A stretch of 64,000 nt of DNA, taken from the NCBI GenBank assembly GCA_964410025.1, contig CAYPFA010000001.1, forward strand, positions 31,401 through 95,400. Reading direction: 5' to 3'. Of this stretch, positions 20,216 to 51,507 are shown piece after piece; the stretch's first letter is position 1, and every line of letters begins with the position of its first letter. A model generated the notes under the pieces. That model was not told the origin of the DNA. It did not search any database and saw only the letters and a program-made list of their open reading frames with translations. Origin of the DNA: Candidatus Woesearchaeota archaeon. Its GTDB lineage: Archaea; Nanobdellota; Nanobdellia; Pacearchaeales; GW2011-AR1. The position numbers were made by a program, and so were the translations under genes.

Positions 20216-20300
20216 ACCATATTGATGTTTTTGTGCTTTTTAAATGTTAAGAAACATATTCGTAAGCTTTAAAAGTCTTGAAAATTCTAAATTATTATAA

Positions 20301-20406
20301 GGGCCTATAAGCTAATGAACCATCGTGGTTGCTTATGGGTAAATAATAAATAAGGGCCTATAAGCTAATGAACCATCGTGGTTGCTTATGGGTAAATAAT
20401 AAATAA
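20301..20406 (+). repeat. two tandem 53-bp units, each starting with the first 17 nt of tRNA-Val
   Basis: Unit = GGGCCTATAAGCTAATG + AACCATCGTGGTTGCTTATGGGTAAATAATAAATAA. Identical copies lie at 20301-20353 and 20354-20406, and the third period begins the real gene at 20407. The unit is self-complementary (CCTATAAGC/GCTTATGGG and AACCA/TGGTT). Confidence 0.85.
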
Positions 20407-20477
20407 GGGCCTATAAGCTAATGGTAGACTCTCTCGCTTACACCGAGATGGCGGAGGTTCGATCCCTCCTGGGCCCA
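20407..20477 (+). tRNA. tRNA-Val (anticodon UAC)
   Basis: Acceptor GGGCCTA/TGGGCCC (one G-U), with T8, A14, G18G19 and A21. Anticodon arm TCTCG-CTTACAC-CGAGA and T arm GGAGG-TTCGATC-CCTCC. Discriminator A, and CCA is not encoded. The D stem has one C-A mismatch. Confidence 0.8.
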
Positions 20478-20503
20478 TTTAATATTTATAATTGAACCGG
20501 AGC

Positions 20504-20605
20504 TGGCGGAGGCGAAAATTTCGCTTTGAGTAAAAATAAATTAAGACAGAAAGCAATTTTTACGAAATGCAAAATTTGAGGAGATCCCTCCTGGGCCCAT
20601 TTAAT
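20504..20605 (+). repeat. partial 3' copy of tRNA-Val with 70 nt inserted in the T loop
   Basis: 20504-20512 TGGCGGAGG equals tRNA nt 44-53. A 70-nt insert follows (20513-20582). Then 20583-20605 GATCCCTCCTGGGCCCATTTAAT is identical to 20461-20483 (tRNA nt 57-73 plus 6 nt of flank). Confidence 0.7.
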
Positions 20606-21707: not shown

Positions 21708-24700
21708 CTACTTTTCTACTTTTCCAATCTTACTTAAAATATCATTAACTTGAGAAGTCATTGCTTTTTGTTGCTCTGGTGAAATAACTTTTATAACCTT
21801 TTTCTCTTGAACCGGTTGAGCAGATTTCTGTTGTTGCATCTGTTGTGGTTTTACAATTATTTTCTGAATGGAAAGAATTTTCGGATTAGGTTTGTGATGT
21901 ATATTTATCTGCATAACTTTATTCTGAATAGGCTTTTGCGTTTGTATAACAACCGTTTTTCTATTTTGATTCTGTTGAACATTCATTCCTTTCATCTGTC
22001 CAATTTCCTGTCTAACAATATTTCTTATTTCATCTCTGATTGAAACAGAATTACTTGGTAAACCTTTTTTTTGAGGATTTTGCTTCAATAAATTTTTATC
22101 TCCGCCAGCTTTCTGAGCCAAGTTCTTAGCATTATTAACAACATTTGTCATTTTTGCAGCAGCTTTTTTTGCTTCAATTTTTCCTTTAATCACAGCCTGA
22201 GCAGCAGCCAATATTGCAATAGGAACTCTGTAAGGCGAACATGAAACATTACTTAATCCAATTCTATGACAGAATTCTACAGATGCAGGATCTCCGCCAT
22301 GTTCTCCACAGATTCCCATGTCCATATCTTTCTTTACACTTCTAGCTTTTGTTACAGCCATTCTCATAATTCTACCGACTCCTTCTTGATCAATTGTTTG
22401 GAATGGATCTTTTTCAAAAATATTTTTAGCTAAATAGGTAGGAATAAATTTACCAGCATCATCTCTTGAAAACCCTAAAGTTGTTTGAGTCAAGTCATTT
22501 GTTCCGAAAGACATAAATTCTGCAATCTTTGCAAGCTCGTCAGCAACAACAGCAGCTCTTGGAAATTCAATCATTGTACCAATTTTATATTTAACAACTC
22601 CTTCAGCTTTTGTATCTTTAGCAGCTTTCTTAACAATATCAACAATTAATTGAAACTCAACAGTTGAAATAATATTTGGAATTTCAATTTCTGGAATTGC
22701 GTTTATTCCTTGTTTTTTACATTCTATCGCAGCCTCAAAAACTGCTCTTGCTTGCATTTCAGAAATTTCAGGATAAACAACTCCAAGTCTACATCCTCTA
22801 AATCCCAACATTGGATTAAATTCGTGAAGCTCGTCGATCTTTGCCTTGATTTTTGCAACTGGCATATTTATTTTTTTAGAAAGTTCTTCAATTTCCTTAT
22901 CTTCTTTTGGTAAAAATTCATGTAATGGCGGATCTAAGAATCTTATAATTACCGGTAAATTATTCATTTCTCTAAATATTCCTTCAAAATCAGATCTTTG
23001 TAATGGAAGTAATTTCTCCAAAGCTTTTCTTCTACCCGCTTCATCATCAGCTAAAATCATTTCTCTTACCGAGTCAATTCTATCGCCTTCGAAAAACATA
23101 TGCTCTGTTCTTGTTAAACCAATTCCTTCAGCGCCAAATCCTCTTGCAATTTTAGCATCGCCTGGAGTATCAGCATTTGCTCTTACGCCAAGTCTTTTTG
23201 TCTTTTGAGCCCATTGCATTAATGTTCCAAATTCGCCAGCAAGAATTGGATCGATTACAGCCAAAGATCCTTTGTAAAAATCCCCTGTTGTTCCATCAAG
23301 TGTTAAATAATCTCCTTCCTTCAAAACCTCTCCGCCAATTGTCATTGTTTTCTTTTTTTCATCGATAATTAATTCAGAACATCCAGCAATACAACACTTA
23401 CCCATTCCTCTTGCAACTACAGCCGCATGTGAAGTCATTCCGCCTCTAGCAGTTAAAATTCCTTGAGAAACATGCATTCCCTTAATATCGTCAGGGGAAG
23501 TTTCAAGTCTTACTAAAATAACTTTTTCATCCTTTTCCACTGTCCATTCTTCAGCAACTTCTGCGTTGAAAACAATTTTACCAACAGCTGCACCAGGTGA
23601 AGCAGGCAAACCTTTTCCTAAAACATTAACTTTTGTTTTCGCAACCGGGTCAATTCTCTTGTGCAATAATTGATTAATTTGTTGTGGATCAACTTTCATT
23701 AAAGCCTCTTCTTCCGTCAATAATTTTTCTTTAACCAATTCAACAGCAATTCTAACAGCAGCAAGTCCAGTTCTTTTTCCATTTCTCGTCTGTAACATAT
23801 ACAATTTTCCTTCTTGTACTGTGAATTCAATGTCTTGCATATCCTTGTAATGTTTTTCTAAAGTTTGTCTAATTTCCAATAACTGCTTGTAAACAACCGG
23901 CATATCTTTTTCTAATCTTGCGATTGGCTCAGGTGTTCTAATTCCAGCAACCACGTCTTCGCCTTGAGCATTAATCAAATATTCGCCATAAAATTTATTT
24001 TCTCCATTTGAAGGATTTCTTGTAAAACAAACTCCAGTTCCAGATGTTGGTCCTAAATTTCCGAAAACCATTGCCTGAACATTAACGGCTGTGCCCAAAA
24101 GTCCTTTAATATCGTTCAATTGTCTGTACGTGATTGCTCTTGTATTATTCCACGAACTAAAAACAGCATCGACAGCCATAATTAATTGTTCTCTTGGGTT
24201 TTCTGGAAAAGATTTTCCTTTTTCTGCTTTAATCAAATCTTTATATTTTTGTACAATAATTTTCAAATCTTCAACTGTTAATTCAGTATCAATTTTAATT
24301 CCTTTTGTTTTCTTTTGATTATCTAAAATATGTTCAAATTTATCATGATCAACTTGCAAAACTACGTCGCCAAACATTTGTAAAAATCTTCTGTAAGAAT
24401 CGTAAGCAAATCTTGGATTTTGGGATTTCTGCGCCAAAGCCTCAACTGTTTTATCGTTTAAACCTAAATTCAAAATTGTGTCCATCATTCCTGGCATTGA
24501 AACCGCAGCACCAGAACGAACAGAAACTAAAAGTGGTGATTTATCATCATTAAATTTCATTCCAACTTTTTTTTCTAATTCAATAATAGCAGCGTCGATT
24601 TGTCCCTGTAATTCAGCCGGATATTTTTTTCCATTTTTATAATAAGCATCACAAGTTTCAGTAGAAATTGTAAATCCATCAGGAACTGGTAATCCCAAAT

Positions 24701-24791
24701 TAATCATCTCAGATAAATTAGCACCCTTTCCGCCTAAAAGTTGTTTCATCGAAGCGTTCCCCTCTTTGAATAAATATACGTATTTAGCCAT
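21708..24791 (-). CDS. ppdK: pyruvate, phosphate dikinase with a Q/K/N-rich C-terminal extension
   Basis: KGANLSEM, the phospho-histidine region GGMTSHAAVVARG, and the TIM-barrel motifs FMSFGTNDLTQ and CGEHGGDP. About 157 extra residues follow the usual C-terminus (...CSPYRVPIAILAAAQA). Confidence 0.9.
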   Translation of the reverse strand: MAKYVYLFKEGNASMKQLLGGKGANLSEMINLGLPVPDGFTISTETCDAYYKNGKKYPAELQGQIDAAIIELEKKVGMKFNDDKSPLLVSVRSGAAVSMPGMMDTILNLGLNDKTVEALAQKSQNPRFAYDSYRRFLQMFGDVVLQVDHDKFEHILDNQKKTKGIKIDTELTVEDLKIIVQKYKDLIKAEKGKSFPENPREQLIMAVDAVFSSWNNTRAITYRQLNDIKGLLGTAVNVQAMVFGNLGPTSGTGVCFTRNPSNGENKFYGEYLINAQGEDVVAGIRTPEPIARLEKDMPVVYKQLLEIRQTLEKHYKDMQDIEFTVQEGKLYMLQTRNGKRTGLAAVRIAVELVKEKLLTEEEALMKVDPQQINQLLHKRIDPVAKTKVNVLGKGLPASPGAAVGKIVFNAEVAEEWTVEKDEKVILVRLETSPDDIKGMHVSQGILTARGGMTSHAAVVARGMGKCCIAGCSELIIDEKKKTMTIGGEVLKEGDYLTLDGTTGDFYKGSLAVIDPILAGEFGTLMQWAQKTKRLGVRANADTPGDAKIARGFGAEGIGLTRTEHMFFEGDRIDSVREMILADDEAGRRKALEKLLPLQRSDFEGIFREMNNLPVIIRFLDPPLHEFLPKEDKEIEELSKKINMPVAKIKAKIDELHEFNPMLGFRGCRLGVVYPEISEMQARAVFEAAIECKKQGINAIPEIEIPNIISTVEFQLIVDIVKKAAKDTKAEGVVKYKIGTMIEFPRAAVVADELAKIAEFMSFGTNDLTQTTLGFSRDDAGKFIPTYLAKNIFEKDPFQTIDQEGVGRIMRMAVTKARSVKKDMDMGICGEHGGDPASVEFCHRIGLSNVSCSPYRVPIAILAAAQAVIKGKIEAKKAAAKMTNVVNNAKNLAQKAGGDKNLLKQNPQKKGLPSNSVSIRDEIRNIVRQEIGQMKGMNVQQNQNRKTVVIQTQKPIQNKVMQINIHHKPNPKILSIQKIIVKPQQMQQQKSAQPVQEKKVIKVISPEQQKAMTSQVNDILSKIGKVEK

Positions 24792-24848
24792 ACAAAACTA
24801 TTCTAAAAATTTGGTTTATAAATATTATGGTAATGAAAAAGATAAATT

Positions 24849-24929
24849 AATATTAAAATTAAAGAGCACTACAAATCTTTTTAAATCCTCGAAAAGTTAC
24901 ATTCTTAGGCAGTCGTGGTTAAGTGGTAG
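24849..24929 (+). repeat. 81-bp direct repeat, left copy (tRNA-Gly promoter region plus first 21 nt of the tRNA)
   Basis: AATATTAAAATTAAAGAGCACTACAAATCTTTTTAAATCCTCGAAAAGTTACATTCTTAGGCAGTCGTGGTTAAGTGGTAG is identical to 32151-32231. Downstream of nt 21 the sequence diverges into AT-rich DNA. Confidence 0.8.
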
Positions 24930-25035
24930 TTAAGTACCTTGTAGTATAATATATTTTGTGTTTACAATAGATACAATAACGACTCTTTAGTGACAAAATA
25001 GATAGATTTAAAATATTGTTTTTTATATAGATTAT

Positions 25036-26481
25036 ATGGTAGAGACAATATTGCTGGTTGGATTTGGTCATCACGCTAGAAGAATCTATTATCCTGTCTT
25101 AAATGAGGCAAGGGAGAAATATGATTTTATTATTGTAGATGTTGATAACCAAAAAGAAAGTATTGAAGGATTTTTTGCAGAAAGAGAACATAAGCCAAAG
25201 AAGATTATTTTATTAAAACAATTTTCAGAAGAGTTGCCAGAATTACCTCAAGAAACTAAGGCAATTCTTGATGCTGTAGTTGATAATTATAAAATAAAAG
25301 GAATGATCATATCTACTGATCCTCTTTATCATTTACACTATGCAAAATGGGCTCTAAAAAGAGAAATTTCTATTCTAATGGATAAGCCAATTAGTGCCCG
25401 TAAAAATATGTCTAGTGATGTGAACCAAGCCGAAAAGTTAAATAAGGATTATCAGGAGCTTTATGATCTCTATAGTACAAAAAGAAATAAGATTTTGTTC
25501 TCAGTTGTGTCACAAAGAAGATTTCATAGCGGCTTTCAAAAAGCAAAAGAGTTAATTAAAGAAGTTTTTGAAAAAACAAACTGTCCGATAACGTCTATAC
25601 AAATTAACCATGCAGATGGACAGTGGAGATTGCCAAATGAAATTATAGACATAGATTATCATTCATTTAATCAGGGATTTGGAAAATGTTCTCACTCTGG
25701 ATATCATTTTATTGATCTTCTTACGTTTTTATTTGAGGGTGCTACGAATGAAAGTAAGAAAGTAGACAATGTGGAAGTTTTTTCTAGTTTTCTAACTCCT
25801 CTAGATCATCTAAATCAGATTAGTTTAGAGGATTATGACAAATTATTTAGTAATTTTAGAGATTATAACAAATATAGTCATGAAGAATTAAAGAGAAAAA
25901 TGAGATTATTTGGAGAGATTGACGCATTTATTAATATGAATTTCAAGATTGGAGAAAATATAATCACTCTTTGTAGTTTAAATCTAGTACATAATGGATT
26001 CTCTCAGAGAGGTAATTTAATTCCAAATAAAGATCTATATAAAGGAAATGGGAGAGTAAGGCACGAAAGCTATATCATACAACAAGGTCCATTTCAATGT
26101 TTGCACATAGATTCTCTTCAATCTTCTGAAATTAAGGCAAACTCTGAGCCAAATTATGATATAGGCGGTGAGTATCATTTCGATATACATATTTTTAGGA
26201 ATGATAAGTTTAATAGCAAGTGGAAGAATTATGAAAAAATATCTATAAGACAATTACAGAAAAATAAAATGCTTAATTTATCTAGGGGACATCAAGAAGA
26301 TGCTAGAAGAGAAGCTACTTTTGAATTTTTGAATTATTTGGAGGGAGAGAGGAAAAAAGAATATGTGTCGGATTTCGCGCTTCATAAGAATACTGTGAAG
26401 CTTATAGCAGGAATTTACAAGTCTTCAGTCTTGAAACTAAATAATTCTAATCCATTGGTTAAAATTTCTTATGACTCCTAA
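25036..26481 (+). CDS. Gfo/Idh/MocA-like NAD(P)-dependent oxidoreductase
   Basis: N-terminal Rossmann start ILLVGFGHHARRIYYPVL, plus ISTDPLYHLHYAKWALKREISILMDKPIS (the EKP-like motif of the family). Confidence 0.6.
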   Translation: MVETILLVGFGHHARRIYYPVLNEAREKYDFIIVDVDNQKESIEGFFAEREHKPKKIILLKQFSEELPELPQETKAILDAVVDNYKIKGMIISTDPLYHLHYAKWALKREISILMDKPISARKNMSSDVNQAEKLNKDYQELYDLYSTKRNKILFSVVSQRRFHSGFQKAKELIKEVFEKTNCPITSIQINHADGQWRLPNEIIDIDYHSFNQGFGKCSHSGYHFIDLLTFLFEGATNESKKVDNVEVFSSFLTPLDHLNQISLEDYDKLFSNFRDYNKYSHEELKRKMRLFGEIDAFINMNFKIGENIITLCSLNLVHNGFSQRGNLIPNKDLYKGNGRVRHESYIIQQGPFQCLHIDSLQSSEIKANSEPNYDIGGEYHFDIHIFRNDKFNSKWKNYEKISIRQLQKNKMLNLSRGHQEDARREATFEFLNYLEGERKKEYVSDFALHKNTVKLIAGIYKSSVLKLNNSNPLVKISYDS

Positions 26482-27181
26482 AATATACGTAGTTGGTTTT
26501 GATGGCTTGCATAGATCTGGGAAAGGTACTCAAATTAATTATTTAAAAGAATATCTTACTGCAAGTGAGAGTCCTCATGTTGTTATTCGGGGAGATGGCA
26601 CTAGGCGGGGAAAAGGAGAGTTATCTTATGATCCAAAGTCAACTTGGTGGCAATTTAATTATGATTATTTTTTTAAACCAGATTCTTCCCCAAGCGAGAC
26701 TTTATATAAAAGGAATTTGCTCTATCAAAGAATTTCAAGAGAGGCTCAATTTTGGCTAAGAAGGGGATTGCCAACTATTGCTAGAGATTCTTCTGCAAAT
26801 AGAGCATTTTTAGTAATGGATCGAACTTTCTTATCTAGGTTATTTGTTATGAGGCAGATATGTCCGTCAATTAGCATAGATGAGGCTCTAAATTCTTATA
26901 ATCCAAATAATTCTAATATTGTTGAGTCTATTATACCAGATATAACCTTTGCTCTAGATGTTTCTAAAACAGAGTTACTCAGAAGGTGCGAAAGTGCAAC
27001 GGATCAGCCAGATAAGGCGGATTTTAGAAGGAACAATTTATTGAATCACTATGGGCTTTATGAGAAAGTTCTGGACGAAGTTTGTAGAGATTCGAGATTT
27101 AATGTTTGTCGTGTACCTGGGGAGTCTTCTCCGGAGGAGATCCATTCTTTTGTAAAAAAAGTAGTAATGGAGATGAAATGA
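26471..27181 (+). CDS. P-loop nucleoside/nucleotide kinase-like protein (dTMP-kinase-like fold)
   Basis: VVGFDGLHRSGKGTQ Walker A resembles the E/GxDGxGKST of thymidylate/deoxynucleoside kinases. Overlaps the upstream gene by 11 nt. Confidence 0.55.
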   Translation: MTPKIYVVGFDGLHRSGKGTQINYLKEYLTASESPHVVIRGDGTRRGKGELSYDPKSTWWQFNYDYFFKPDSSPSETLYKRNLLYQRISREAQFWLRRGLPTIARDSSANRAFLVMDRTFLSRLFVMRQICPSISIDEALNSYNPNNSNIVESIIPDITFALDVSKTELLRRCESATDQPDKADFRRNNLLNHYGLYEKVLDEVCRDSRFNVCRVPGESSPEEIHSFVKKVVMEMK

Positions 27182-28479
27182 GTGAAATTAAATGGTTCAA
27201 TTTTAAGAAAAACGACAGTAAAACAGATATATATTGTTCGAATGAAAAAAAATTGAAACTTTCTAGTTTGGCTATTATGAAAGAACTTGATTTGGCTTGG
27301 TTTAACTTTTTTGTAAAAAATACATCTAATGGGGGAGTATTGAAAAAAAATACATATGCTGAAGATTTTAATAAAGTGAGATTGGTACATATAACTTCTT
27401 CTTTCGATGAGATAGTTCGCACTGGAAAGATTTTCCCTAGCGGAGGAGGCTTAGGGTCTGTAATATATTGCTCACCCTTACATAAAGAAAATAGCGTTCA
27501 TAATCTATTTGAGCAATATCTTCATTTTCAGTTGCCAAAACATACTCCTAAAGAATTAACTCCGTTATGTATAGAGATCTCTTTAGAAAGAAGAGACAAG
27601 GATAATCTCAGTAGTTATGGAGTTGACTATACTAATTTTGGAGAGTTACATTGTATGGTGTGGAAAGTTCTGAAACGTGAACTTATGAAACCTTATATTG
27701 CAGAATTTGAAAATAAAATAAGTAGTCAAGTTATGAAATTACGAGATGTGTTTAATGTTTTTATAGATTATAACTTAAATTCGGTTTCTAGCAAAAAGTT
27801 AAGAGAATATTATAACAGCATTTTTATAGGGACCCCTTCCTTGAGATTCATTTTATATGAGATTCTTGCAGAATATATTTTATTATATCAAGACAATAAG
27901 AAGGCAGTTAAATATCGTGATATCGGTGAACTTTATAATTTGTCTCATAAGAAGTTTATATTTGATTTGTGCCCGTCTATGTTGAAAAGATTTAATATGA
28001 GGGAGTTTTTTATAAAAATAGAAGACATAGAGGAATATTTTTCTAAGTCTGATATCTTTGTTGAATTTAATAAGGATCAATTTGAGTGGTTTTTGAAGTG
28101 GAGAATGGGATTTTATATCAAGAAACTTTGTTTAAGGAAAATAGATTCTATAAACAGTTTTGATCAGTTAGTTTCAAATTATCCTAGGCTAGTTGGACAA
28201 ATAATTTATAGGGATTTCTTTGATAAAAATTTATTTGAACGAGTTAGAAGTAAAATTATATATCCTATGTGGAAAAAAGATAGAATTATTTGCCCTATTT
28301 ATCCAATTCTTCCAAAGGGCGAAGTTGGAGTAAATCCCTGTTTAGATGAATTGGGAGTGAAATATAAAATATATAAGGCAAAATATGACTCGAGAAGAGG
28401 AAAATTAATTTTATTGAAGGAGTTAAATATAAAATTAAATTCAGAATTAATATCTAAAGCCAAAACAACAGTAAGATGA
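27178..28479 (+). CDS. hypothetical protein (433 aa) with no recognisable motif
   Basis: Start chosen at MSEIKWFNF, where ATGA overlaps the kinase stop. The longer track ORF (27106) would overlap the kinase by 76 nt. Confidence 0.5.
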   Translation: MSEIKWFNFKKNDSKTDIYCSNEKKLKLSSLAIMKELDLAWFNFFVKNTSNGGVLKKNTYAEDFNKVRLVHITSSFDEIVRTGKIFPSGGGLGSVIYCSPLHKENSVHNLFEQYLHFQLPKHTPKELTPLCIEISLERRDKDNLSSYGVDYTNFGELHCMVWKVLKRELMKPYIAEFENKISSQVMKLRDVFNVFIDYNLNSVSSKKLREYYNSIFIGTPSLRFILYEILAEYILLYQDNKKAVKYRDIGELYNLSHKKFIFDLCPSMLKRFNMREFFIKIEDIEEYFSKSDIFVEFNKDQFEWFLKWRMGFYIKKLCLRKIDSINSFDQLVSNYPRLVGQIIYRDFFDKNLFERVRSKIIYPMWKKDRIICPIYPILPKGEVGVNPCLDELGVKYKIYKAKYDSRRGKLILLKELNIKLNSELISKAKTTVR

Positions 28480-29237
28480 GTATGCCTCTTTATTTAAAAA
28501 TTCAGAACAAAGTATTTGAAGATTTGCAGATTTTAGATTTAGAAACTTTAGAATGGATTAGAAGCAGACAAAATCCAAAGATATTTAGTATTTCTGAAAA
28601 TAAAGCCGATTTTAAACCTCTTAACGAAGAGGAAATAAAAGAAGTAATTCCCAAATTAGAATGGTTTAGTAATTCAAATAGGGCATTAAGTATTCATGGT
28701 AGATCACACGCAGTTAGAACTACTTTATTTTCATATGCTATTTGCAAATTAAATAATATTAGCAGTTATAAAAAGCATCTTGTTGCTGCTAGTATACATG
28801 ATATCTCTAGGGGTGTTGATAATGATGATTTTGATCATGGTGAAAGGTCAGCTAATTGGTTTAAAGAAAATCATAGTTTGTTTAGAGGGTTAACACAAAA
28901 AGAAAAAGAAGAGATATATTTTGCAGTGTACTATCATGATATTGAGCAAGAAAATATTCCAATAGAAATATTAGACAAAAATAGGGAGATTATCAATGTT
29001 CTCAAGTGTGCAGATGCATTAGATCGTTTTAGGTTGCCAAAAGAGAAATGGTGGCCAAATAGAAATTTTTTCAAGATAGATATTCCCGACTGGGTTTTTG
29101 AAATGGCTAAATGGTTAGTTTATCAATCAGAACTAGATATTATTAAATATTCTAAAGACCCAGTAGATGCTGTTTTAAGTTTAGGATTTAAGGCAGGATT
29201 AAATAAGTTTATAAATAAATCTTCTATTCCTATCTAA
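28476..29237 (+). CDS. HD-domain phosphohydrolase
   Basis: HGRSHAVR ... AASIHDISRG ... YYHD ... CADALDR gives the H..HD..D pattern. ATGA overlap with the upstream gene. Confidence 0.6.
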   Translation: MSMPLYLKIQNKVFEDLQILDLETLEWIRSRQNPKIFSISENKADFKPLNEEEIKEVIPKLEWFSNSNRALSIHGRSHAVRTTLFSYAICKLNNISSYKKHLVAASIHDISRGVDNDDFDHGERSANWFKENHSLFRGLTQKEKEEIYFAVYYHDIEQENIPIEILDKNREIINVLKCADALDRFRLPKEKWWPNRNFFKIDIPDWVFEMAKWLVYQSELDIIKYSKDPVDAVLSLGFKAGLNKFINKSSIPI

Positions 29238-29647
29238 TGGACGAAAAATACTTGTTTAAGGTTATTGTGGCAGCAGTTATATTTAATGAAGATAAGAAAT
29301 TTCTATTAGCAAAAAGAAGCTTAACTGAAGACGTCTTGCCGGGATATTGGGGTATACCTGGTGGGAAAGTAGAAACACGAGGCAATATACCTAATATTTT
29401 AGAGTACGAAGTAAAAAGAGAAGTCTTGGAGGAGGTAGGTATAGAGGTTGATGATTTAAAATATATAGAAAGTCATATGAATGATAGTGGGAAATTGAAT
29501 GTTTGTTTTTCGTGTAAAATTTCTGGCGGAGTTCCAAAAGCACTAGAAGATACTTCAGAAGTTGGATGGTTTTCCCTAAAAGAAGCGGAATGCATGCAAC
29601 TAACCCCTCATACCTTAGAAAGATTAAAGACTGCAATAGGTAATTAG
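29237..29647 (+). CDS. Nudix hydrolase
   Basis: Nudix box GGKVETRGNIPNILEYEVKREVLEEVGI. TAATG overlap with the HD gene. Confidence 0.8.
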   Translation: MDEKYLFKVIVAAVIFNEDKKFLLAKRSLTEDVLPGYWGIPGGKVETRGNIPNILEYEVKREVLEEVGIEVDDLKYIESHMNDSGKLNVCFSCKISGGVPKALEDTSEVGWFSLKEAECMQLTPHTLERLKTAIGN

Positions 29648-31326
29648 TTCTTTTTTATTAAAAAATTTCCTAGCGCCAGATAATCTAGGCCACTAGAATA
29701 GAAAGCCTTTATCGCATCACGAGGAGTACAAACAATCGGTTCACCCTTTCCGTTAAAGGAGGTATTCATAACAACTGGTATCTTAGTTATTTTTTCGAAT
29801 TCTTCAATGAGTTTATGAAATTTTTCATTTACTTCTTTTTTTACCGCGTGCGGTCTAGCCGTGCCATCTACATGAACTACTGCCGGTATATCTTTTATTT
29901 TTGAGCTTACTACATTAGATCCAACAATCATAAAACTAAAGCAGTCATTCAATTCAAAGAATTTATTCTTTCTCTCATAAAGTATACTTGGAGCGAATGG
30001 CCTCCATAACTCTCTTTCTTTTATAATATTTACATTTTTCCACATGTTAATGTTTTTAGGATCAGATAAAACAGATCTGTTACCTAGTGATCTTGGTCCG
30101 AATTCCATTCTTCCCTGAAACCACCCTACTATTTTTCCATCACTTATTAGTTTTGCGCACTTAGAACATATATTGCTTTCTTTTGTGTAACTTATTTTGA
30201 ATTTTTTAAGTTCTTTTTCTATTTCATTATCACTAAATTCTGGCCCAAAATATGTTGTTTCATATCTATTATTTGTTTTTTTGTCAACTTTTGCAGAGTA
30301 TTCCAAAGCGGCGCCGATTGATGATCCAGCGTCATTTGAAGCTGGCTGAACATAAATTTCTTTTACTTTTTTAGATTCTAATATTCTTTGGTTAGCTATA
30401 CAATTAAGTGCCACCCCGCCACTTAAACATAATTTATCTTGCCCGGTTAATTTGACGGCCAAGTCTACCAGTTTTAGTATTTTCTTTTCTAGAACTTTTT
30501 GTGCAGATGCAGCAATATTTTTTTGAATGTTTGAAAAATCAACTGTTTTTGAGAATTCTCCTGTCATTTTGTTAAAGGAAGTATTTGTTTTGTCTTTTTC
30601 TCCAAAAAGATTCTCAAAGTTTTCAATCCATTTAGAAACAATAATTGTTTGTTGTCCTCTTTTATTTTTTAATTCTTTTGAGTCTAAGGTAATATTTATT
30701 GATTCTAGCTTTTTTATAATTTCTTCGTCTGGTTTTCCATAGGGTGCTAACCCCATTAATTTTCCTTCATCCCCGTTTCTCATTCCAATATATCTTTCTA
30801 TTGAGCTATAAAAATACCCTATAGAATCTTCGATTTTGTTGTTCCAAACTTTTTTTATTTTATTTCCCTTGCCCGCCCATATGGACGCAGAGCAATATTC
30901 GCCTTGCCCATCTATCACAAGTATAGCGGCATTCTCAAACCCAGAGCACCTAAAAGAGCTAGATGCGTGCGCCAAATGATGTTCTACGTAGCCAATCTTA
31001 GGTATTTTTTTGTATTGAAAATATTTTTTTGGAAAAAATTTATTTAATATATCTTCTGGAGGTACAGAGTAAATTGTTTCTCTATCTGGTCCGACATTTT
31101 CCCAATCCCAACTAAATACCACATAATCAATATCATCTAATTCTAGTTTTTGGCTATCTAGACAAGCTTTTACGCTTAATAATGGTAGAGAGTCATATGC
31201 ACGTTTTTTCCTAAGTAGTCTTTCTTCTTCTATTGCAAATTTTATTTCTCCATCTACTACGAGAGTAGCAGAGACATCGTGGTTAACACTAAGCCAGGGG
31301 GAGGCATTAATCCCTAAAATCTTCAT
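29644..31326 (-). CDS. carbamoyltransferase (NodU/CmcH/TobZ family)
   Basis: MKILGINASPWLSVNHDVSATLVVDGEIKFAIEEERLLRKK N-terminus and C-terminal NTSFNGKGEPIV..PRDA, typical of the family at 560 aa. Confidence 0.85.
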   Translation of the reverse strand: MKILGINASPWLSVNHDVSATLVVDGEIKFAIEEERLLRKKRAYDSLPLLSVKACLDSQKLELDDIDYVVFSWDWENVGPDRETIYSVPPEDILNKFFPKKYFQYKKIPKIGYVEHHLAHASSSFRCSGFENAAILVIDGQGEYCSASIWAGKGNKIKKVWNNKIEDSIGYFYSSIERYIGMRNGDEGKLMGLAPYGKPDEEIIKKLESINITLDSKELKNKRGQQTIIVSKWIENFENLFGEKDKTNTSFNKMTGEFSKTVDFSNIQKNIAASAQKVLEKKILKLVDLAVKLTGQDKLCLSGGVALNCIANQRILESKKVKEIYVQPASNDAGSSIGAALEYSAKVDKKTNNRYETTYFGPEFSDNEIEKELKKFKISYTKESNICSKCAKLISDGKIVGWFQGRMEFGPRSLGNRSVLSDPKNINMWKNVNIIKERELWRPFAPSILYERKNKFFELNDCFSFMIVGSNVVSSKIKDIPAVVHVDGTARPHAVKKEVNEKFHKLIEEFEKITKIPVVMNTSFNGKGEPIVCTPRDAIKAFYSSGLDYLALGNFLIKKN

Positions 31327-31582
31327 AAAAATAAATGATTAACTACCTTTAAATATTTAGCGCAACATTCAAATATAATAAAGAGTAATTACTTTTATGA
31401 AAAATAGGGTTCATAATATAATATAGATAATTCATCCAGTTCATAAAAAATATATAAAAACGCGTTAAAAACTATAGTTTCCTCAATTTATTATTGTGTT
31501 TGATCAATAAATAGGTTATTAGTAAAGAGTATTGCTAGAAGTAGCATATATAAAAAAATACCTAAAGAAGATTAAAATATTT

Positions 31583-32095
31583 TTAGGAATACAACTCTTT
31601 AAATTTAGATAAAAATAAAAAATCTCTTTTTAAAACAAATTGATGAGTATAAGCAGATGGAGAACATTTTTTTAATAAAAGAAGAGCTTCATCAAGAGGG
31701 ACCCAACAGATTTTAAATTTTTCATCTTTCTTTAAATAAGAATCTTTATCATTTTTAATATCAAAAGCATTGCAAATAAAACAATTAGAAATCTGAATTT
31801 GCCCATATTTGTTCTTATGCTCTGTGACTACTCCAAACTCTTTAAAACCATCAGCACTGCAATTAATCTCTTCTCTTATAATTCTTGAAAGAGCAGCTAC
31901 ATAGTCTTCGTTACCCAATATCTCTCCTCCTGGTAATTTGTAGTAATCATCACTATCAGATCTAATAATTGCGACATTCCTATTAGTGTCTAAAACAATT
32001 GCTCGTACAGTTTTTCTTAACCGAAACTCCTCTTTGTCCCAGATTATCTCTTTTCCAAAAACATCCATATCTGTTATCTCGTGTATAAATTGCAT
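31583..32095 (-). CDS. Nudix hydrolase (second copy in island)
   Basis: Nudix box GGEILGNEDYVAALSRIIREEINC. Confidence 0.75.
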   Translation of the reverse strand: MQFIHEITDMDVFGKEIIWDKEEFRLRKTVRAIVLDTNRNVAIIRSDSDDYYKLPGGEILGNEDYVAALSRIIREEINCSADGFKEFGVVTEHKNKYGQIQISNCFICNAFDIKNDKDSYLKKDEKFKICWVPLDEALLLLKKCSPSAYTHQFVLKRDFLFLSKFKELYS

Positions 32096-32150
32096 ATCTT
32101 ATATTAGAAAATTAAGTTTATAATTTTAACGTAGGTATATCACAAATAGC

Positions 32151-32231
32151 AATATTAAAATTAAAGAGCACTACAAATCTTTTTAAATCCTCGAAAAGTT
32201 ACATTCTTAGGCAGTCGTGGTTAAGTGGTAG
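32151..32231 (+). repeat. 81-bp direct repeat, right copy (functional promoter plus 5' part of tRNA-Gly)
   Basis: Identical to 24849-24929. The TTTTTAAAT TATA-like box is centred about 27 nt upstream of tRNA position 1. Confidence 0.8.
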
Positions 32232-32281
32232 AATATGACCTTGCCAAGGTTGTGACCCGAGTTCGATTCTCGGCGACTGCA
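32211..32281 (+). tRNA. tRNA-Gly (anticodon GCC)
   Basis: Acceptor GCAGTCG/CGACTGC and D loop AAGTGGTA. Anticodon arm TGACC-TTGCCAA-GGTTG and T arm CCGAG-TTCGATT-CTCGG. Discriminator A, and CCA is not encoded. Confidence 0.85.
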
Positions 32282-32329
32282 TAGAACAAAAGTGTTCAAC
32301 ATGAGAATCTTTATAAAATAAAATCATTG

Positions 32330-32372
32330 CCGAGAAGCGAAGGAGGAGAGTGAGATTCTCGGCGACTGCATA
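32330..32372 (+). repeat. partial 3' copy of tRNA-Gly with an expanded T loop
   Basis: CCGAG is followed by 19 nt (AAGCGAAGGAGGAGAGTGA) replacing TTC. Then GATTCTCGGCGACTGCATA is identical to 32265-32283 (tRNA nt 57-73 plus 2 nt). Confidence 0.7.
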
Positions 32373-32482
32373 TCGACGCTTTTGATGATTTTATCGACGG
32401 TGGAAATGTATAATATTTATTTTAGTATTGTTGCGGCAGGAATCATATTTACGATTTATTTGTTTAATTAGCTATTTTAAAA

Positions 32483-32576: not shown

Positions 32577-32619
32577 TTCTAAGGAATATATGAAAAAGAT
32601 GAAAGGAGGTAAAAACAAA

Positions 32620-33003
32620 ATGAAAAAAACAATGTTAGTAGCTATGATGGCAATAATGACAATGTTAACTATTGGCTCAGTGTTTGCATATCAGTATGGG
32701 AACAGAACAAATGCAAACCCAGCGGTAGACAGAATAGCAGCAGAAGCGGCTATTGAGTCTGGAGACTATAATGCTTGGAAATTATTGCATGCAGAATCTA
32801 GTGGAAAGATGGCGTCATTGATAAACGAAGGAAACTTCTATTTATTAAAAGAAATGCATGAAGCTAGAGAGGCTGGAGACTTTGCAACAGTTCAAAAGAT
32901 TAAAACTGAATTAGGTTTTAAATCTGGAAACGGGCAAGGTAATGGAATGCATGATGGACAGGGAAAAGCTAAAAACAGCGGAAATTGCCCATATGCAAAC
33001 TAA
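32620..33003 (+). CDS. small secreted protein
   Basis: Start chosen at MKKTMLVAMMAIMTMLTIGSVFA (signal peptide), 9 nt downstream of a GGAGGT Shine-Dalgarno-like site. The C-terminus is G/N/Q-rich with one Cys. Confidence 0.55.
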   Translation: MKKTMLVAMMAIMTMLTIGSVFAYQYGNRTNANPAVDRIAAEAAIESGDYNAWKLLHAESSGKMASLINEGNFYLLKEMHEAREAGDFATVQKIKTELGFKSGNGQGNGMHDGQGKAKNSGNCPYAN

Positions 33004-39585: not shown

Positions 39586-39783
39586 AGCTTTGTTGAGCTA
39601 CCATGTTATACTCCGAGAAATAAAAAATTGCGAGTAGGGAATCGGATTTGTAGATTTATAGGCAGATGGGCTGGAAGGTGCGAGCAAAACGCTTTTGCTT
39701 TTATCTTGCACAGCAACTATTATTTCGTTTTTCGCAAATGCATTTTGTGAGTAAAGAATCGGACTGACCGATTCACATTTAAG

Positions 39784-39927
39784 GGCGGAAGGTGTGAGAC
39801 CTTTAGAGAAGGTCATCCCCACGGGAAATCGGACTTGTCCGATGAACACATTAAAGGCGGAAGGTGTGAGGCCTTTAGAGAAGGTCATCCCCACGGGAAA
39901 TCGGACTTGTCCGATGAACACATTAAA
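39784..39927 (-). repeat. two tandem 72-bp units, each a cloverleaf-like fold ending in the tRNA-His 3' terminus
   Basis: Unit (minus strand) = TTTAATGTGTTCATCGGACAAGTCCGATTTCCCGTGGGGATGACCTTCTCTAAAGG[C/T]CTCACACCTTCCGCC. Copies lie at 39927-39856 and 39855-39784 with 1 mismatch. The last 13 nt equal the T-stem 3' strand, acceptor 3' strand and C73 of the adjacent tRNA-His. A degenerate further copy CGCACCTTCCAGCC lies at 39682-39669. Confidence 0.85.
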
Positions 39928-40083
39928 GGCGGAAGGTGTGAATCGGACACACGTCTCACGAGTTCTGTCTTGTTGTCTGTCGCCAGACAGGAAGGATAGT
40001 TTTTCTACCTTCCTAGAGGCTCTTTTTTCTAAAAAGAACCTGTAGACCACAGTCGCGTATTCTACCATTGAACTACATCCGCC
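39928..40083 (-). tRNA. tRNA-His (anticodon GUG) with an 84-nt intron at 37/38
   Basis: The 5' exon is encoded G-1, GCGGATG, D arm GTTC-AATGGTA-GAAT, then CGCGA-CTGTGG. The intron spans 40046-39963. The 3' exon is C-TCGTG, AGAC, T arm GTGTG-TCCGATT-CACAC, CTTCCGC and discriminator C73 opposite G-1. Splice sites lie in 3-nt bulges (GG|T and AA|C) flanking a CTGT/ACAG helix, a relaxed bulge-helix-bulge. Confidence 0.7.
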
Positions 40084-40097
40084 ATATTTATTTCTGA

Positions 40098-40144
40098 ACG
40101 TCTCTGAGCCACAGTCACGCATTCTACCATTGAACTACCGAGCT
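40098..40144 (-). pseudogene. intron-less partial tRNA-His-like copy (about positions 1-47) immediately upstream of tRNA-His
   Basis: AGCTCGG-TA-GTTCAATGGTAGAAT-G-CGTGA-CTGTGG-CTCAGAGACGT. The D arm and anticodon loop are identical to tRNA-His, but the acceptor strand differs, there is no G-1 and no matching 3' strand. A TATA-like ATTTAAAG lies about 28 nt upstream. Confidence 0.5.
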
Positions 40145-48848: not shown

Positions 48849-49696
48849 AAAACAACATCTCTCAAATCGAAACAGCATTAAAGAAAGATAAATGTATCGC
48901 ACTTCTAGCTCCGAGCTTCATTGCGGAATTTAGCTATCCAGCAATAGTCTATGTTCTGAAAGAGTTAGGCTTCTCAAAAGTAATCGAACTAACATTCGGT
49001 GCAAAAATGATCAATAGGGACTACCATGAAATTTTAAAAAAGAAAGACAAGCTTTGGATTTCAACTACCTGTCCCGGAATTTGTGAATTTATAAAAAATG
49101 AATATCCTCAATATACAAAAAACCTAATTCCTATTGATAGCCCGATGATTGCAACAGCAAAAATCTGCAAAAAAAACTATCCAAACTTCAAAACAATTTT
49201 CATCTCACCATGTGCTTTCAAAAAACAAGAAGCTGAATCTTCAAAATATGTAGACTACACAATTGACTACCAACAACTTAAACAACTTTTCACAAAAAAT
49301 AAAATAAAACTAAAAAACAGAAAAGCCGGAAAATCAGAAATATTTGATTCTTTCTACAACGACTACACAAAAATCTATCCTGCTTCTGGAGGATTATCTA
49401 AAACAGCTCATCTAAAAGGAATCTTAAGCAAAAACGAAGTAAAAATAATTGACGGAATAAAAAAAATAAAAGAATTTTTAGAAAATTACAAAAAACATCC
49501 AAATAAGAAATTGGTTTTTCTAGACGTAAATTTCTGTGTTGGCGGTTGCCTAGGCGGACCCTTTTTTACAAATAAAAATCTTTCGCAAAAAAAGAAAAAA
49601 CTTCAAAAATACATGAACTACGCACTAAAGGCAAGAATCCCAAATAAAAATAAGGGATTCATAAAACAAGCAGAAGTAATAAAATTTAGAAATTAA
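48845..49696 (+). CDS. [FeFe]-hydrogenase H-cluster-domain-like protein (minimal, 283 aa)
   Basis: LLAPSFIAEF, TTCPGICEFIKNEYP (P1-like with a single Cys), SPCAFKKQE (P2, PCxxKxxE) and FCVGGCLGGP (P3-like). It has no N-terminal ferredoxin domains. Confidence 0.6.
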   Translation: MKNNISQIETALKKDKCIALLAPSFIAEFSYPAIVYVLKELGFSKVIELTFGAKMINRDYHEILKKKDKLWISTTCPGICEFIKNEYPQYTKNLIPIDSPMIATAKICKKNYPNFKTIFISPCAFKKQEAESSKYVDYTIDYQQLKQLFTKNKIKLKNRKAGKSEIFDSFYNDYTKIYPASGGLSKTAHLKGILSKNEVKIIDGIKKIKEFLENYKKHPNKKLVFLDVNFCVGGCLGGPFFTNKNLSQKKKKLQKYMNYALKARIPNKNKGFIKQAEVIKFRN

Positions 49697-50223
49697 AAAC
49701 TCAAAACTCTATCTGCAAACAAAGATAAATCTGCCAAAGTTTCTTTCTTCGTTTCTCCAACCACAAGGCATACTGACTTTAAAGAATTCTGACGAAATTT
49801 AGATGTTATGCTATTCATAAATCTCAACACTAAAAGAATATTATTATGAAGCACCAATCCGGAAAAACTATCCAATATAACTAAATCTGTTTCACTAGAT
49901 AAATTATTCAAAGCTATAGCCAATTCTGTTAAAGCTCTCGGAGAACTAATATACTCACACTGTTTAGCCGGAATTTGCTTCATAGAGGAAGCAGAAATAC
50001 AATCAATAAAATGGAATTTTGAAAAATCTATTTTTCTACCTTTCAATTTTTCAGCCAAAGAAAAATAGGGCATATTAGCGCTAACGATACAAATTTTTTT
50101 AAATTTACCCTTAGCAGACTCACACAAATCCAGAAGAGCTTCACCTGGACTCTCTTTATTGCAAACTAAAACAATACTCTGTCCACCCTCTAATGACTTT
50201 TTTAAGCTAATAATTTTTTCCAT
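49693..50223 (-). CDS. RecA/KaiC-like fold protein with degenerate Walker A (paralogue A)
   Basis: The pattern SIVLVCNKESPGE (no GxxGxGKT), a Walker-B-like DLVILDSFSGL and C-terminal LFADRVLSF resembles KaiC/RadA-like domains. It is a paralogue of 50599-51120. Confidence 0.4.
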   Translation of the reverse strand: MEKIISLKKSLEGGQSIVLVCNKESPGEALLDLCESAKGKFKKICIVSANMPYFSLAEKLKGRKIDFSKFHFIDCISASSMKQIPAKQCEYISSPRALTELAIALNNLSSETDLVILDSFSGLVLHNNILLVLRFMNSITSKFRQNSLKSVCLVVGETKKETLADLSLFADRVLSF

Positions 50224-50225
50224 TT

Positions 50226-50597
50226 TTAACCAAGAAGTTTTTTAACCCTCATTTTAAAATCGTTAATATCTACAATTGGTTTCTGGAAATAATCCACTGC
50301 CTTTAATTTCTTTACCAAACTCTGCCCCTCTAAACCCAATTGAATAGCGGTCAAAAAAGCAACCTTTTGATTTTTCAATTTAGAATCAGCTCTAATCTTT
50401 TCCAACACTTCTCTTCCAGACATTTCCGGCATCATAATATCTAATAAAACCAAATCAAAATTTTCCTTATTCATAATCTTTAAAGCAGACATTCCACTAT
50501 CCACTGTTTTACAACCATAACCCATTCCATCGATAAGCATTTTTAAAGAAGAGACTATATCTTTCTCATCATCAACAACTAAAATTTTTTTAACCAT
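50226..50597 (-). CDS. response regulator receiver (stand-alone CheY-like)
   Basis: ILVVDDE, DLVLLDIMMPEMSG and the conserved K (FQKP) fit a receiver domain. There is no output domain. Confidence 0.85.
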   Translation of the reverse strand: MVKKILVVDDEKDIVSSLKMLIDGMGYGCKTVDSGMSALKIMNKENFDLVLLDIMMPEMSGREVLEKIRADSKLKNQKVAFLTAIQLGLEGQSLVKKLKAVDYFQKPIVDINDFKMRVKKLLG

Positions 50598-50598
50598 A

Positions 50599-51120
50599 CT
50601 AAATTATCTCCACCTTATCTGCAAACAAAGACAAGTCTTCCATAACCTCTTTATTTGTATCATGAAATAATAAATAAACTGCTTTGTTTTTTGCCTGTCT
50701 AACTTTCGCCATCAAACTATTCAAAAATTGCAAAGTTGCCACATTCCCATTATAGGTTAATAATCCAGAAACATTATCAAAAATAATTATATCAAACTCA
50801 GTCAATTTACCATCAATTTCCATTGCCAAATCAACGAGAGACTCTGGGGAAGTAAGGTAGACACATTGCTTCGAAGATTTTTCAGCCATCATCAAACTAG
50901 AAGAAATACAATCAATAAAAAACCATTTAGAAAAATCAATCTTTTCACTTTGAAATTTACTTGATAAAATCGGAAAAGATTTATTCGTAGTAACATAAAG
51001 CACCTTACTGTTTTTAGGAATAGTTTTCAAAAAATTAAGAGTAAAAGTTATAGGATCCGACTCTCGACACAAAAAAACAACGTTCTGATTTTTTTTAAAA
51101 TATTCGTCAATTGGTTTCAT
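50599..51120 (-). CDS. RecA/KaiC-like fold protein with degenerate Walker A (paralogue B)
   Basis: Colinear with 49693-50223: FIDCISSS, a Walker-B-like DIIIFDNVSGL, and LFADKVEI. Confidence 0.4.
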   Translation of the reverse strand: MKPIDEYFKKNQNVVFLCRESDPITFTLNFLKTIPKNSKVLYVTTNKSFPILSSKFQSEKIDFSKWFFIDCISSSLMMAEKSSKQCVYLTSPESLVDLAMEIDGKLTEFDIIIFDNVSGLLTYNGNVATLQFLNSLMAKVRQAKNKAVYLLFHDTNKEVMEDLSLFADKVEII

Positions 51121-51135
51121 AGAAAGTTGTATAAA

Positions 51136-51507
51136 TTAAGAAAGTATCCTCTTTAATTTTGTTTTAAAATCATCAATATCTACAATTGGCTTTTGAAAAT
51201 ACTCAACTGGCTTCAATGTTTTTACAAAATTTTTCCCTTCTGAACTTAATTGAATTACGGATAAAAATGCTACCTTTTGTTTTTTCAATTTAGAATCAGC
51301 TCTAATCTTTTCCAACACTTCTCTTCCAGACATTTCCGGCATAAGTATATCTAATAAAACCAAATCAAACTTTTCTTTAGACAATATTTGAAGTGCGGAT
51401 TTTCCGTCATTTACAATTTTAGAACTAAATCCCATTGCGTCAACAAGCATCTTGACCGATGAAGCTATATCATTCTCGTCGTCAACAATAAGTATCTTCT
51501 TTACCAT
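51136..51507 (-). CDS. response regulator receiver (stand-alone)
   Basis: ILIVDDE and DLVLLDILMPEMSG. It shares a 62-bp identical block with the two other receivers. Confidence 0.85.
   Translation of the reverse strand: MVKKILIVDDENDIASSVKMLVDAMGFSSKIVNDGKSALQILSKEKFDLVLLDILMPEMSGREVLEKIRADSKLKKQKVAFLSVIQLSSEGKNFVKTLKPVEYFQKPIVDIDDFKTKLKRILS

Follow-up and report, generated by a model that had tools for sequence, protein, structure and literature searches.

The Locus and Its Genes

The window analyzed here is a stretch of 64,000 nucleotides (nt) from a Candidatus Woesearchaeota archaeon (GenBank assembly GCA_964410025.1, contig CAYPFA010000001.1, positions 31,401 to 95,400), and every position below is counted from its first letter. 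Its ribosomal protein L35Ae gene, its TATA-type promoters, and best hits named Pacearchaeota or Woesearchaeota mark the source as a Pacearchaeota-like member of the tiny-celled DPANN archaea. Our subject is a segment of seven genes, which we call the island, that stands between two perfect copies of an 81-base-pair (bp) sequence, each made of the promoter and the first 21 nt of a tRNA-Gly gene. How does an operon come to be framed by two copies of the 5′ end of a tRNA gene when no recognizable mobility gene lies inside the frame? The island and its borders are made up as follows.

24849–24929, plus strand: left copy of the 81-bp repeat, resembling a left attachment site (attL-like); 60 bp of upstream sequence with TTTTTAAAT, then tRNA-Gly nt 1–21; a dead stump
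24930–24979, plus strand: left junction DNA, about 50 nt, with no counterpart elsewhere and no significant fold
24980–25035, plus strand: promoter region of the operon itself, TTTAGTGACAAAA ... TTTAAAATA, also conserved before the first-gene ortholog of two further DPANN loci
25036–26481, plus strand: 481-amino-acid (aa) protein with a weak GFO/IDH/MocA-type Rossmann N terminus; 69–73% identity to its orthologs in the DPANN genomes L187 and L190
26471–27181, plus strand: dTMP-kinase-like P-loop kinase, 236 aa (profile scans)
27178–28479, plus strand: 433-aa protein of a rare family, with 12 homologs and a confident AlphaFold model
28476–29237, plus strand: HD-domain phosphohydrolase-like protein, 253 aa (profile scan, operon comparison)
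29237–29647, plus strand: NUDIX hydrolase, 136 aa, MutT/pyrimidine dNTP pyrophosphatase-like (profile scans)
29644–31326, minus strand: NodU/TobZ-type carbamoyltransferase, 560 aa (profile scans)
31583–32095, minus strand: NUDIX hydrolase, 170 aa (NUDIX-170), a variable right-end gene (Pfam scan, operon comparison)
32096–32150, unstranded: right junction, 55 nt, with the TATA-like box of the NUDIX-170 gene 35 nt from the repeat
32151–32231, plus strand: right copy of the 81-bp repeat (attR-like); promoter and nt 1–21 of the working tRNA-Gly gene
32211–32281, plus strand: intact tRNA-Gly(GCC), 71 nt; CCA not encoded
32348–32372, plus strand: copy of the tRNA-Gly 3′ end, a second scar; 23 of 25 nt match 32259 onward, and GCCGAGAA just before it pairs with the copy

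A preliminary description of this DNA had found no integrase, transposase, or replication gene among the seven, and it was right. All seven proteins were scanned against Pfam, NCBIfam, PHROGs, and PADLOC, and a generic NUDIX model apart, no integrase, transposase, replication, or defense family appeared in any of them. The model of the 433-aa protein agrees. Its 12 homologs, found among 5.8 billion clusters, belong to DPANN archaea and to one metagenome-assembled genome of Sungbacteria (candidate phyla radiation), the best of them at 59% identity; the AlphaFold model (pLDDT 89, pTM 0.90) has no fold match in the Protein Data Bank (best E 0.96, TM at most 0.16), which argues that the protein, as modeled, has no known recombinase fold. 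A single-sequence model of the 481-aa protein (pLDDT 38) is unusable. The spacing of the operon's own promoter fits a leaderless mRNA.

The 81-bp Repeat

The two copies are an exact direct repeat (24849–24929 = 32151–32231), a match that 0 of 100 shuffles reproduced, and 7,221 bp are enclosed between them. The bases just outside disagree at both ends: t against c at 24848/32150 and T against A at 24930/32232. Measured on the tRNA gene, which ARAGORN calls at 32211–32281 and Rfam scores at 60.7 bits, the repeat runs from −60 to +21. In each copy (24878–24886 and 32180–32188) lies TTTTTAAAT, its center about 27 nt 5′ of tRNA-Gly nt 1, and we read it as a predicted TATA box at the spacing usual for archaea. 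The right copy alone runs on into a whole tRNA-Gly. On each of these points (the perfect identity, the duplication of some 60 bp of upstream sequence with its box plus nt 1–21, and the wholeness of only one copy, which both ARAGORN and Rfam support), the preliminary description stands.

It had also seen a faint likeness to a tRNA in the left copy past nt 21, and here, it was half right. There, 7 of 12 nt agree in register with tRNA-Gly nt 22–33, with ACCTTG at 24936–24941 equal to nt 28–33; beyond nt 33, the likeness to the remaining tRNA-Gly is at the level of shuffles, and the CGACTC that had been taken for a further trace sits on the upstream border of the conserved promoter that belongs to the operon. 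The left copy has no Rfam match even at E ≤ 10, for which reason we rejected a tRNA pseudogene. Its nt 22–24 (TTA) are unable to pair with nt 10–12 (GTT), and its nt 22–27 form no D stem; therefore, any crossover would fall within the 81 bp.

The 3′ end of tRNA-Gly is duplicated as well. An exact block of 19 nt (32265–32283 = 32354–32372), beginning at nt 55, recurs 89 bp downstream of the original, and it is included in a stretch of about 190 bp (32282–32473), reaching from the tRNA to the next gene's conserved promoter, that has no counterpart in relatives. Also inside that stretch, directly 3′ of tRNA-Gly, is a hairpin, GAACAAAAGTGTTC.

Junctions and Flanks

On either side of the island stand the following genes.

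21708–24791, minus strand: ppdK, pyruvate, phosphate dikinase (PPDK), 1027 aa, the left flank (Pfam PPDK_N/PEP-utilizers)
32590–33003, plus strand: first gene of a conserved three-gene module on the right flank, 137 aa, SHOCT-like, DUF7343; homology to relatives from 32474

For ppdK, a leaderless mRNA is probable; its TATA-like box on the minus strand, TTTATAAAC, lies near 24814–24822. Read on the plus strand, a TATA-like GTTTATAA occurs both at 24814–24822 and at 32116–32124, each time precisely 35 nt beyond the border of the 81-bp repeat, some 25–27 nt ahead of the ATG of a divergent gene (ppdK and NUDIX-170, respectively), a spacing that suggests leaderless mRNAs for both. The equal offsets possibly mean that the duplication was once longer. 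When we looked for decayed homology past the 81 bp, a single block stood out (14 of 20 positions, at 24809–24828), and this block is the TATA box of the divergent genes at that same offset; as a sign of an extended duplication, it is suggestive, not decisive. No further copy of the filler DNA exists in either the window or the loci fetched.

PPDK itself carries a C-terminal extension of about 150 aa (21708–22163), rich in Q, K, and N; most homologs have about 870–880 aa vs. the 1027 aa found here, and the extension is the least conserved part of the protein among close relatives. Farther along the window, two neighboring PAS/histidine-kinase genes share N-terminal segments of 105-bp tandem repeats (53041–53244 and 55822–56024) that encode coiled-coil-like ELEIA/RKLVFEN, and the pairs of response-regulator and KaiC-like genes at 49693–51507 look like a recent tandem duplication.

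Other tRNA Genes in the Window

Two more tRNA genes lie in the window, and both carry scars of this kind.

20297–20423, plus strand: perfect 53-bp tandem repeat at tRNA-Val, 2.4 copies; tRNA nt 1–17 at 20301, 20354, and 20407
20583–20605, plus strand: copy of the tRNA-Val 3′ end, 23 nt exact (= 20461–20483), from nt 55; 122 bp downstream of the original
39928–40082, minus strand: tRNA-His(GUG) with an intron of about 87 nt, found by Rfam and missed by ARAGORN
39757–40143, minus strand: scar region of tRNA-His, with a 5′-half copy and a 3′-end array

Upstream of tRNA-Val(TAC), at 20407–20477, the perfect 53-bp repeat leaves nt 1–17 of the gene present three times, with a single conserved promoter, CTTTAAAAG (20267–20275), before the first copy; the 53-bp unit folds into a strong hairpin (z = −3.65). 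In the relative L170, whose PPDK is 82% identical, the same promoter stands directly before a clean tRNA-Val gene, without the 106-bp insert and without the 3′ copy; since promoter and gene are there and the inserts are not, the scars here are recent, derived insertions. At tRNA-His, a diverged copy of the 5′ half (core 40138–40121) lies about 60 nt upstream, between a TATA-like box and the real gene, and the 3′ end is repeated three times in a 72-bp tandem array (39757–39941, 2.6 copies, 93% matches) that differs by gaps between the JGI samples 3300044990 and 3300045131.

All three tRNA genes of the window (Gly, Val, and His) have thus had both their 5′ and their 3′ ends duplicated, and of the 46 tRNAs in the other loci fetched (2.9 Mb), 0 have the 15-mer of either end duplicated. 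The positions recur too: in tRNA-Val and in tRNA-Gly alike, the exact 3′ block begins at nt 55 (GAT of the T loop), and the 5′ block stops inside the D loop (nt 17 of tRNA-Val, nt 21 of tRNA-Gly). Because tRNA-Val and tRNA-His also bear end duplicates, end duplication is a habit of the lineage and not a single event.

The Operon in Other Genomes

The seven island genes are a colinear operon that is conserved in DPANN. Two further DPANN genomes have it at 52–78% identity: L187 (GCA_040961015.1) and L190, a scaffold from groundwater. In these (7157–15370 of L187 and 7378–14863 of L190), the operon also has an upstream NUDIX gene and a thymidylate-synthase-like gene, the latter divergent from the carbamoyltransferase; tblastn found no trace of the thymidylate-synthase-like gene in the window. 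From its domain content and from this neighbor gene elsewhere, the operon's role is probably the modification of pyrimidine nucleotides or of nucleic acid.

In phages, the pairing of a thymidylate-synthase homolog with a carbamoyltransferase serves the synthesis of 5-carbamoyloxymethylcytosine (PMC8670742), and the resemblance, which concerns the cargo only, is easily seen: in L187 and L190, the carbamoyltransferase is divergently paired with a thymidylate-synthase-like gene in the company of dNMP-kinase-like, NUDIX, and HD genes. The differences are that the window's operon lacks the thymidylate-synthase-like gene, that its carbamoyltransferase is distant from the phage proteins (about 31% identity), and that the setting is cellular; the 433-aa protein has no match in phage records. 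We rejected membership of the island in the class of pyrimidine hypermodification modules, the thymidylate-synthase homolog being absent from the window. The gene set of L187 and L190 is like the phage pathways of pyrimidine hypermodification, yet it is chromosomal, in cells.

Relatives and Assembly Support

PPDK relatives at 82–88% identity, taken from a protein index, have other genes upstream of their ppdK; a PPDK search of a one-genome-per-species collection and of JGI metagenome contigs gave a best identity of 75% and no tRNA beside ppdK. Relatives of the right-flank gene (71–88% identity) include none with tRNA-Gly upstream, and in the closest of them, homology starts only at 32474. In every accessible relative, the segment is absent at ppdK and upstream of the right-flank module. 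The carbamoyltransferase is the sole member of its 90%-identity cluster. On whether the island is foreign, this pattern of relatives tells more than composition does: PPDK has relatives at 82–88% identity and the right-flank gene at 71–85%, but nothing closer than 59% is found for the island's 433-aa protein.

One congeneric genome (PPDK 88%; IMG 3300059473, a 39,129-bp contig) has two Phage_integrase genes (413 aa and 198 aa) and an AEP primase gene (AEP-TOTE), with many small open reading frames (ORFs) alongside, within the stretch of some 10 kb upstream of ppdK, and this is the side of ppdK that the island occupies here. On the downstream side of ppdK, the same contig adds MFS and ASCH genes. 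A population variant in IMG 3300059473 (a 7,075-bp contig) has an additional Fic gene beyond the island's right-end NUDIX-170, which shows that the cargo is in flux.

The arrangement is not an assembly artifact. It is identical, base for base, in the JGI assemblies 3300044990 and 3300045131. The left junction DNA is found in both and is implied by gene spacing in 3300059473; the right junction is found in 3300044990, 3300045131, and 3300044987. Two Logan contigs (k = 31) start 30 nt within the right repeat; one of these two, of 7,281 bp (7,221 + 2 × 30), has its end 30 nt within the left repeat, and a third leads from inside the right repeat through tRNA-Gly into the right flank. On no contig seen, all accessible contigs of the locus representing one strain, is there an alternative join of either kind (an empty chromosome or a closed circle).

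Origin of the Island

What, then, placed the operon here? The account that we favor, and favor tentatively at rather less than an even chance, is an attachment-type (att) duplication made by a single crossover at a 5′-distal site of the tRNA, with a recombinase that acted in trans or has since been lost. A DNA circle of some 7.3 kb that bore the identical 81 bp would have met the 5′ region of the chromosomal tRNA-Gly in one reciprocal crossover. Its own 81-bp copy would thereby have become the promoter and nt 1–21 of the working gene (the right copy), and the chromosomal copy that it displaced would have become the dead stump beside ppdK (the left copy). The enzyme would be a tyrosine recombinase that recognizes the D-loop region of tRNA genes, furnished by another element in trans or else lost from the island, and the island would be a degenerate element of the cis-mobilizable type without a mobility gene. 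The repeat, the whole tRNA, the lack of mobility genes, the absence of the segment from relatives, and the parallel scars at other tRNAs are all shown; that there was a circle, which enzyme acted, and which way the exchange went are what we infer.

Several things speak for this account. A direct repeat of part of a tRNA, with the whole tRNA at one end only, is the classic signature of attL and attR, and the att copies are intact at both ends with the recombinase gene absent, as in cis-mobilizable elements. The break points are fixed in the structure (nt 55 and the D loop), as site-specific enzymes would leave them; tRNA-Gly itself has a second scar, and the other two tRNAs of the window bear end duplicates as well; the cargo is in flux within the population; and a relative bears integrases. 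Integration at a 5′-distal tRNA site is documented in archaea for pTN3-like elements, for TKV4/MVV, and for CalSub-E1, and archaeal attB sites can take in the D loop and reach past the gene (PMC8371274, PMC6563490, PMC3293823), so that a 5′ duplication, which the preliminary description had set against the usual duplication of the 3′ end, has published precedents.

A good deal also weighs against it. No integrase appears in the scanned ORFs of the window or in the Pfam lists over 11708–42931, the ORFs outside that range having been judged by eye, and the element in the congeneric genome, seen as a gene list, is at best a candidate user of this att site. An element's backbone is absent: the operon with its own promoter begins about 50 nt from the left repeat, and its last gene starts 55 nt from the right one, and with so little that is neither repeat nor operon, there is no room for a backbone. 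In L187 and L190, the operon lies among housekeeping genes, without a tRNA and without flanking repeats (repeats were searched for). The carbamoyltransferase, the 433-aa protein, and the 481-aa protein have no match in IMG/VR viral contigs, where the 5′ 21-mer of tRNA-Gly likewise has no exact match. Although the island is an outlier by 4-mer distance (0.214 vs. 0.126 ± 0.015 in controls, whose maximum is 0.158), its synonymous codon usage is inside the control range, and the k-mer difference comes from amino-acid composition; the proposed comparison with the flanks comes out different for 4-mers and alike for codon choice. No circular junction was found in accessible contigs. The search for an empty site among relatives, which had been proposed as a check, ended halfway: the segment is indeed missing from them, but ppdK and the right flank are nowhere adjacent, and no true empty site was found. 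At the other tRNAs, the scars have tiny fillers of 36 to about 100 nt with inverted micro-copies, which look more like template switching than like decayed elements, and the perfect identity of 81 bp, 60 bp of it noncoding promoter, fits homologous recombination equally well.

Homologous recombination by RadA is, in our judgment, unlikely but a serious competitor. It would be a single crossover with circular or concatemeric DNA of a related cell that shared the 81 bp, or an unequal exchange between sisters, and the island would then be a cassette that loops out and in via its own 81-bp repeats. A perfect identity that stops abruptly at both ends is what one would expect of it, as is codon usage like the host's if the donor genome was closely similar; it asks for no integrase, and neither the island nor the examined ORFs of the window have one, nor is there a backbone. 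The gaps in the 72-bp tRNA-His array between samples suggest that repeats near tRNAs do recombine in the population, and even for the archaeal integrase IntpTN3, any identity of at least 104 bp reportedly suffices for recombination (PMC8371274). It leaves unexplained the structural break points that tRNAs share (nt 55 in two, the D loop in two), the restriction to tRNA genes, and how the circle first gained the promoter and 5′ end of tRNA-Gly. Those shared positions are no kinder to template switching, or break-induced replication, at tRNA hairpins where replication or repair stalls. This process, which we hold to be slightly less likely still but a live rival, would leave short duplications with filler DNA at every tRNA of the lineage; the island would not be mobile, and the filler at tRNA-Gly would be a 7.2-kb copy of a resident operon. 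A start at nt 55 in two different tRNAs favors an enzyme with a defined cleavage site. Moreover, 7.2 kb of copying followed by a return exactly upstream of the promoter is demanding, and no second copy of the operon was seen, all contigs with its proteins mapping to one locus. It is the scars taken together that make this process attractive, with three of three tRNAs in the window hit at both ends vs. 0 of 46 elsewhere, five of six fillers a mere 23 to about 105 nt long, at least three fillers holding a short inverted copy of the adjoining tRNA piece (GCTTATGGG, GCCGAGAA, and ATCGGAC), and the strong fold of the tRNA-Val unit; in addition, the operon has kept its promoter and reaches nearly to the repeats on both sides, and it is chromosomal in other DPANN genomes.

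Could the left copy simply be useful? Split and tri-split tRNAs exist in archaea, DPANN included (they are discussed in PMC3293823), and the left copy might be the 5′ part of such a tRNA, completed in trans by another fragment, or, alternatively, a promoter co-opted for the five-gene operon: a perfect promoter has been kept, it is aimed into the operon, and the perfect conservation of a supposedly dead copy needs explaining. We find this very improbable. A whole tRNA-Gly(GCC) is present, the stump has no fold to speak of (z = 0.05), no Rfam match, and no D-stem pairing at nt 22–27, and the operon has a conserved promoter of its own. A free 7.3-kb circle and an uninterrupted chromosome misjoined via the 81 bp would look just like this locus, the source is a metagenome, and short-k graphs break exactly at the repeat; with both junctions in several independent assemblies and no contig bearing the alternative joins, such a misassembly is scarcely credible. 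A broader idea, that recombination directed by tRNA structure (D loop and T-loop nt 55) acts on many or all tRNA genes, leaves arrays of duplicated ends, and captures and moves integrase-less operon cassettes that bring their own tRNA promoter, much as integrons do, shuffling metabolic modules among reduced genomes, strikes us as doubtful. Two further candidates were rejected. For a DNA transposon or casposon, the terminal inverted repeats score 15 vs. 14.1 ± 2.5 in shuffles, and there is no transposase or casposase gene; known target duplications are far shorter than 81 bp. For a split integrase of the SSV/pTN3 type, no ORF overlaps either repeat suitably, the neighbors being the conserved first gene of the operon, 106 bp away, and the NUDIX gene on the other strand, 55 bp away.

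Where does this leave the att-type duplication that we prefer? The insertion had been called unexplained, and its mechanism is now narrowed and still unproven. Of the preliminary reading of the island, the bounding by a duplicated 5′ end with promoter, the lack of a recognizable mobility gene, the absence from all accessible relatives, and the outlying k-mer composition are borne out; a typical remnant of a mobile element the island is not, being a conserved operon with its own promoter.

Meaning of the Locus

DPANN archaea have tiny, fast-rearranging genomes, and how such genomes gain operons is poorly understood. Here a complete seven-gene operon for nucleotide modification has been set down beside a tRNA gene without encoding any mobility function. 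Should recombinases acting in trans have left the scars, genes would flow into this lineage mainly at its tRNA genes; should the scars instead be errors of replication at those genes, they would amount to a new mutational signature. In both cases, the two identical 81-bp copies lead one to expect that the island can loop out. The cargo has an interest of its own, for it includes a confidently modeled protein without a known fold and hints at modified pyrimidines in a cellular archaeon.

Comparison with Known Systems

The closest likenesses are to pTN3-like plasmids, TKV4, MVV, and CalSub-E1 (PMC8371274, PMC6563490). In these as here, the repeats are the 5′ part of a tRNA, with the displaced 5′ fragment at the far border, and the element restores the whole gene and, therefore, must bring an expression signal. 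Unlike our island, they encode an integrase, and we have here neither a whole integrase gene nor a split one; in the pTN3-like elements, integration divides the integrase gene, whose promoter then drives the tRNA, whereas here the tRNA's own 60-bp promoter has been duplicated. In Caldiarchaeum subterraneum, a 5′ fragment of tRNA-Thr lies 1.8 kb upstream of the intact gene, and its authors propose site-specific integration followed by homologous recombination (PMC3293823). The two loci are alike in that a 5′ fragment and a whole tRNA flank a strain-specific insert and in a break close to the D arm (24/25 is where Caldiarchaeum gained an intron); they are unlike in that the Caldiarchaeum insert of 1.8 kb has a putative recombinase by the tRNA, whereas ours holds 7.2 kb of metabolic genes only and has a promoter in the repeat.

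Integrase-less islands flanked by att sites are also known, namely the cis-mobilizable elements (CIMEs) that go with the integrative and conjugative elements (ICEs) of streptococci. With these, our island shares two intact att-like copies, the lack of any recombination gene, cargo of an adaptive type, and a relative whose corresponding locus has an integrase-bearing element; it differs in having no more than a candidate helper for its att site, in lacking backbone remnants, and in its archaeal, 5′-distal site. The 5′ location, then, is rare yet known, and integrase-less islands between att sites are known too. What is unusual here is the combination of a 60-bp promoter within the repeat, a clean conserved operon as cargo, and end duplicates at fixed positions on every tRNA in view.

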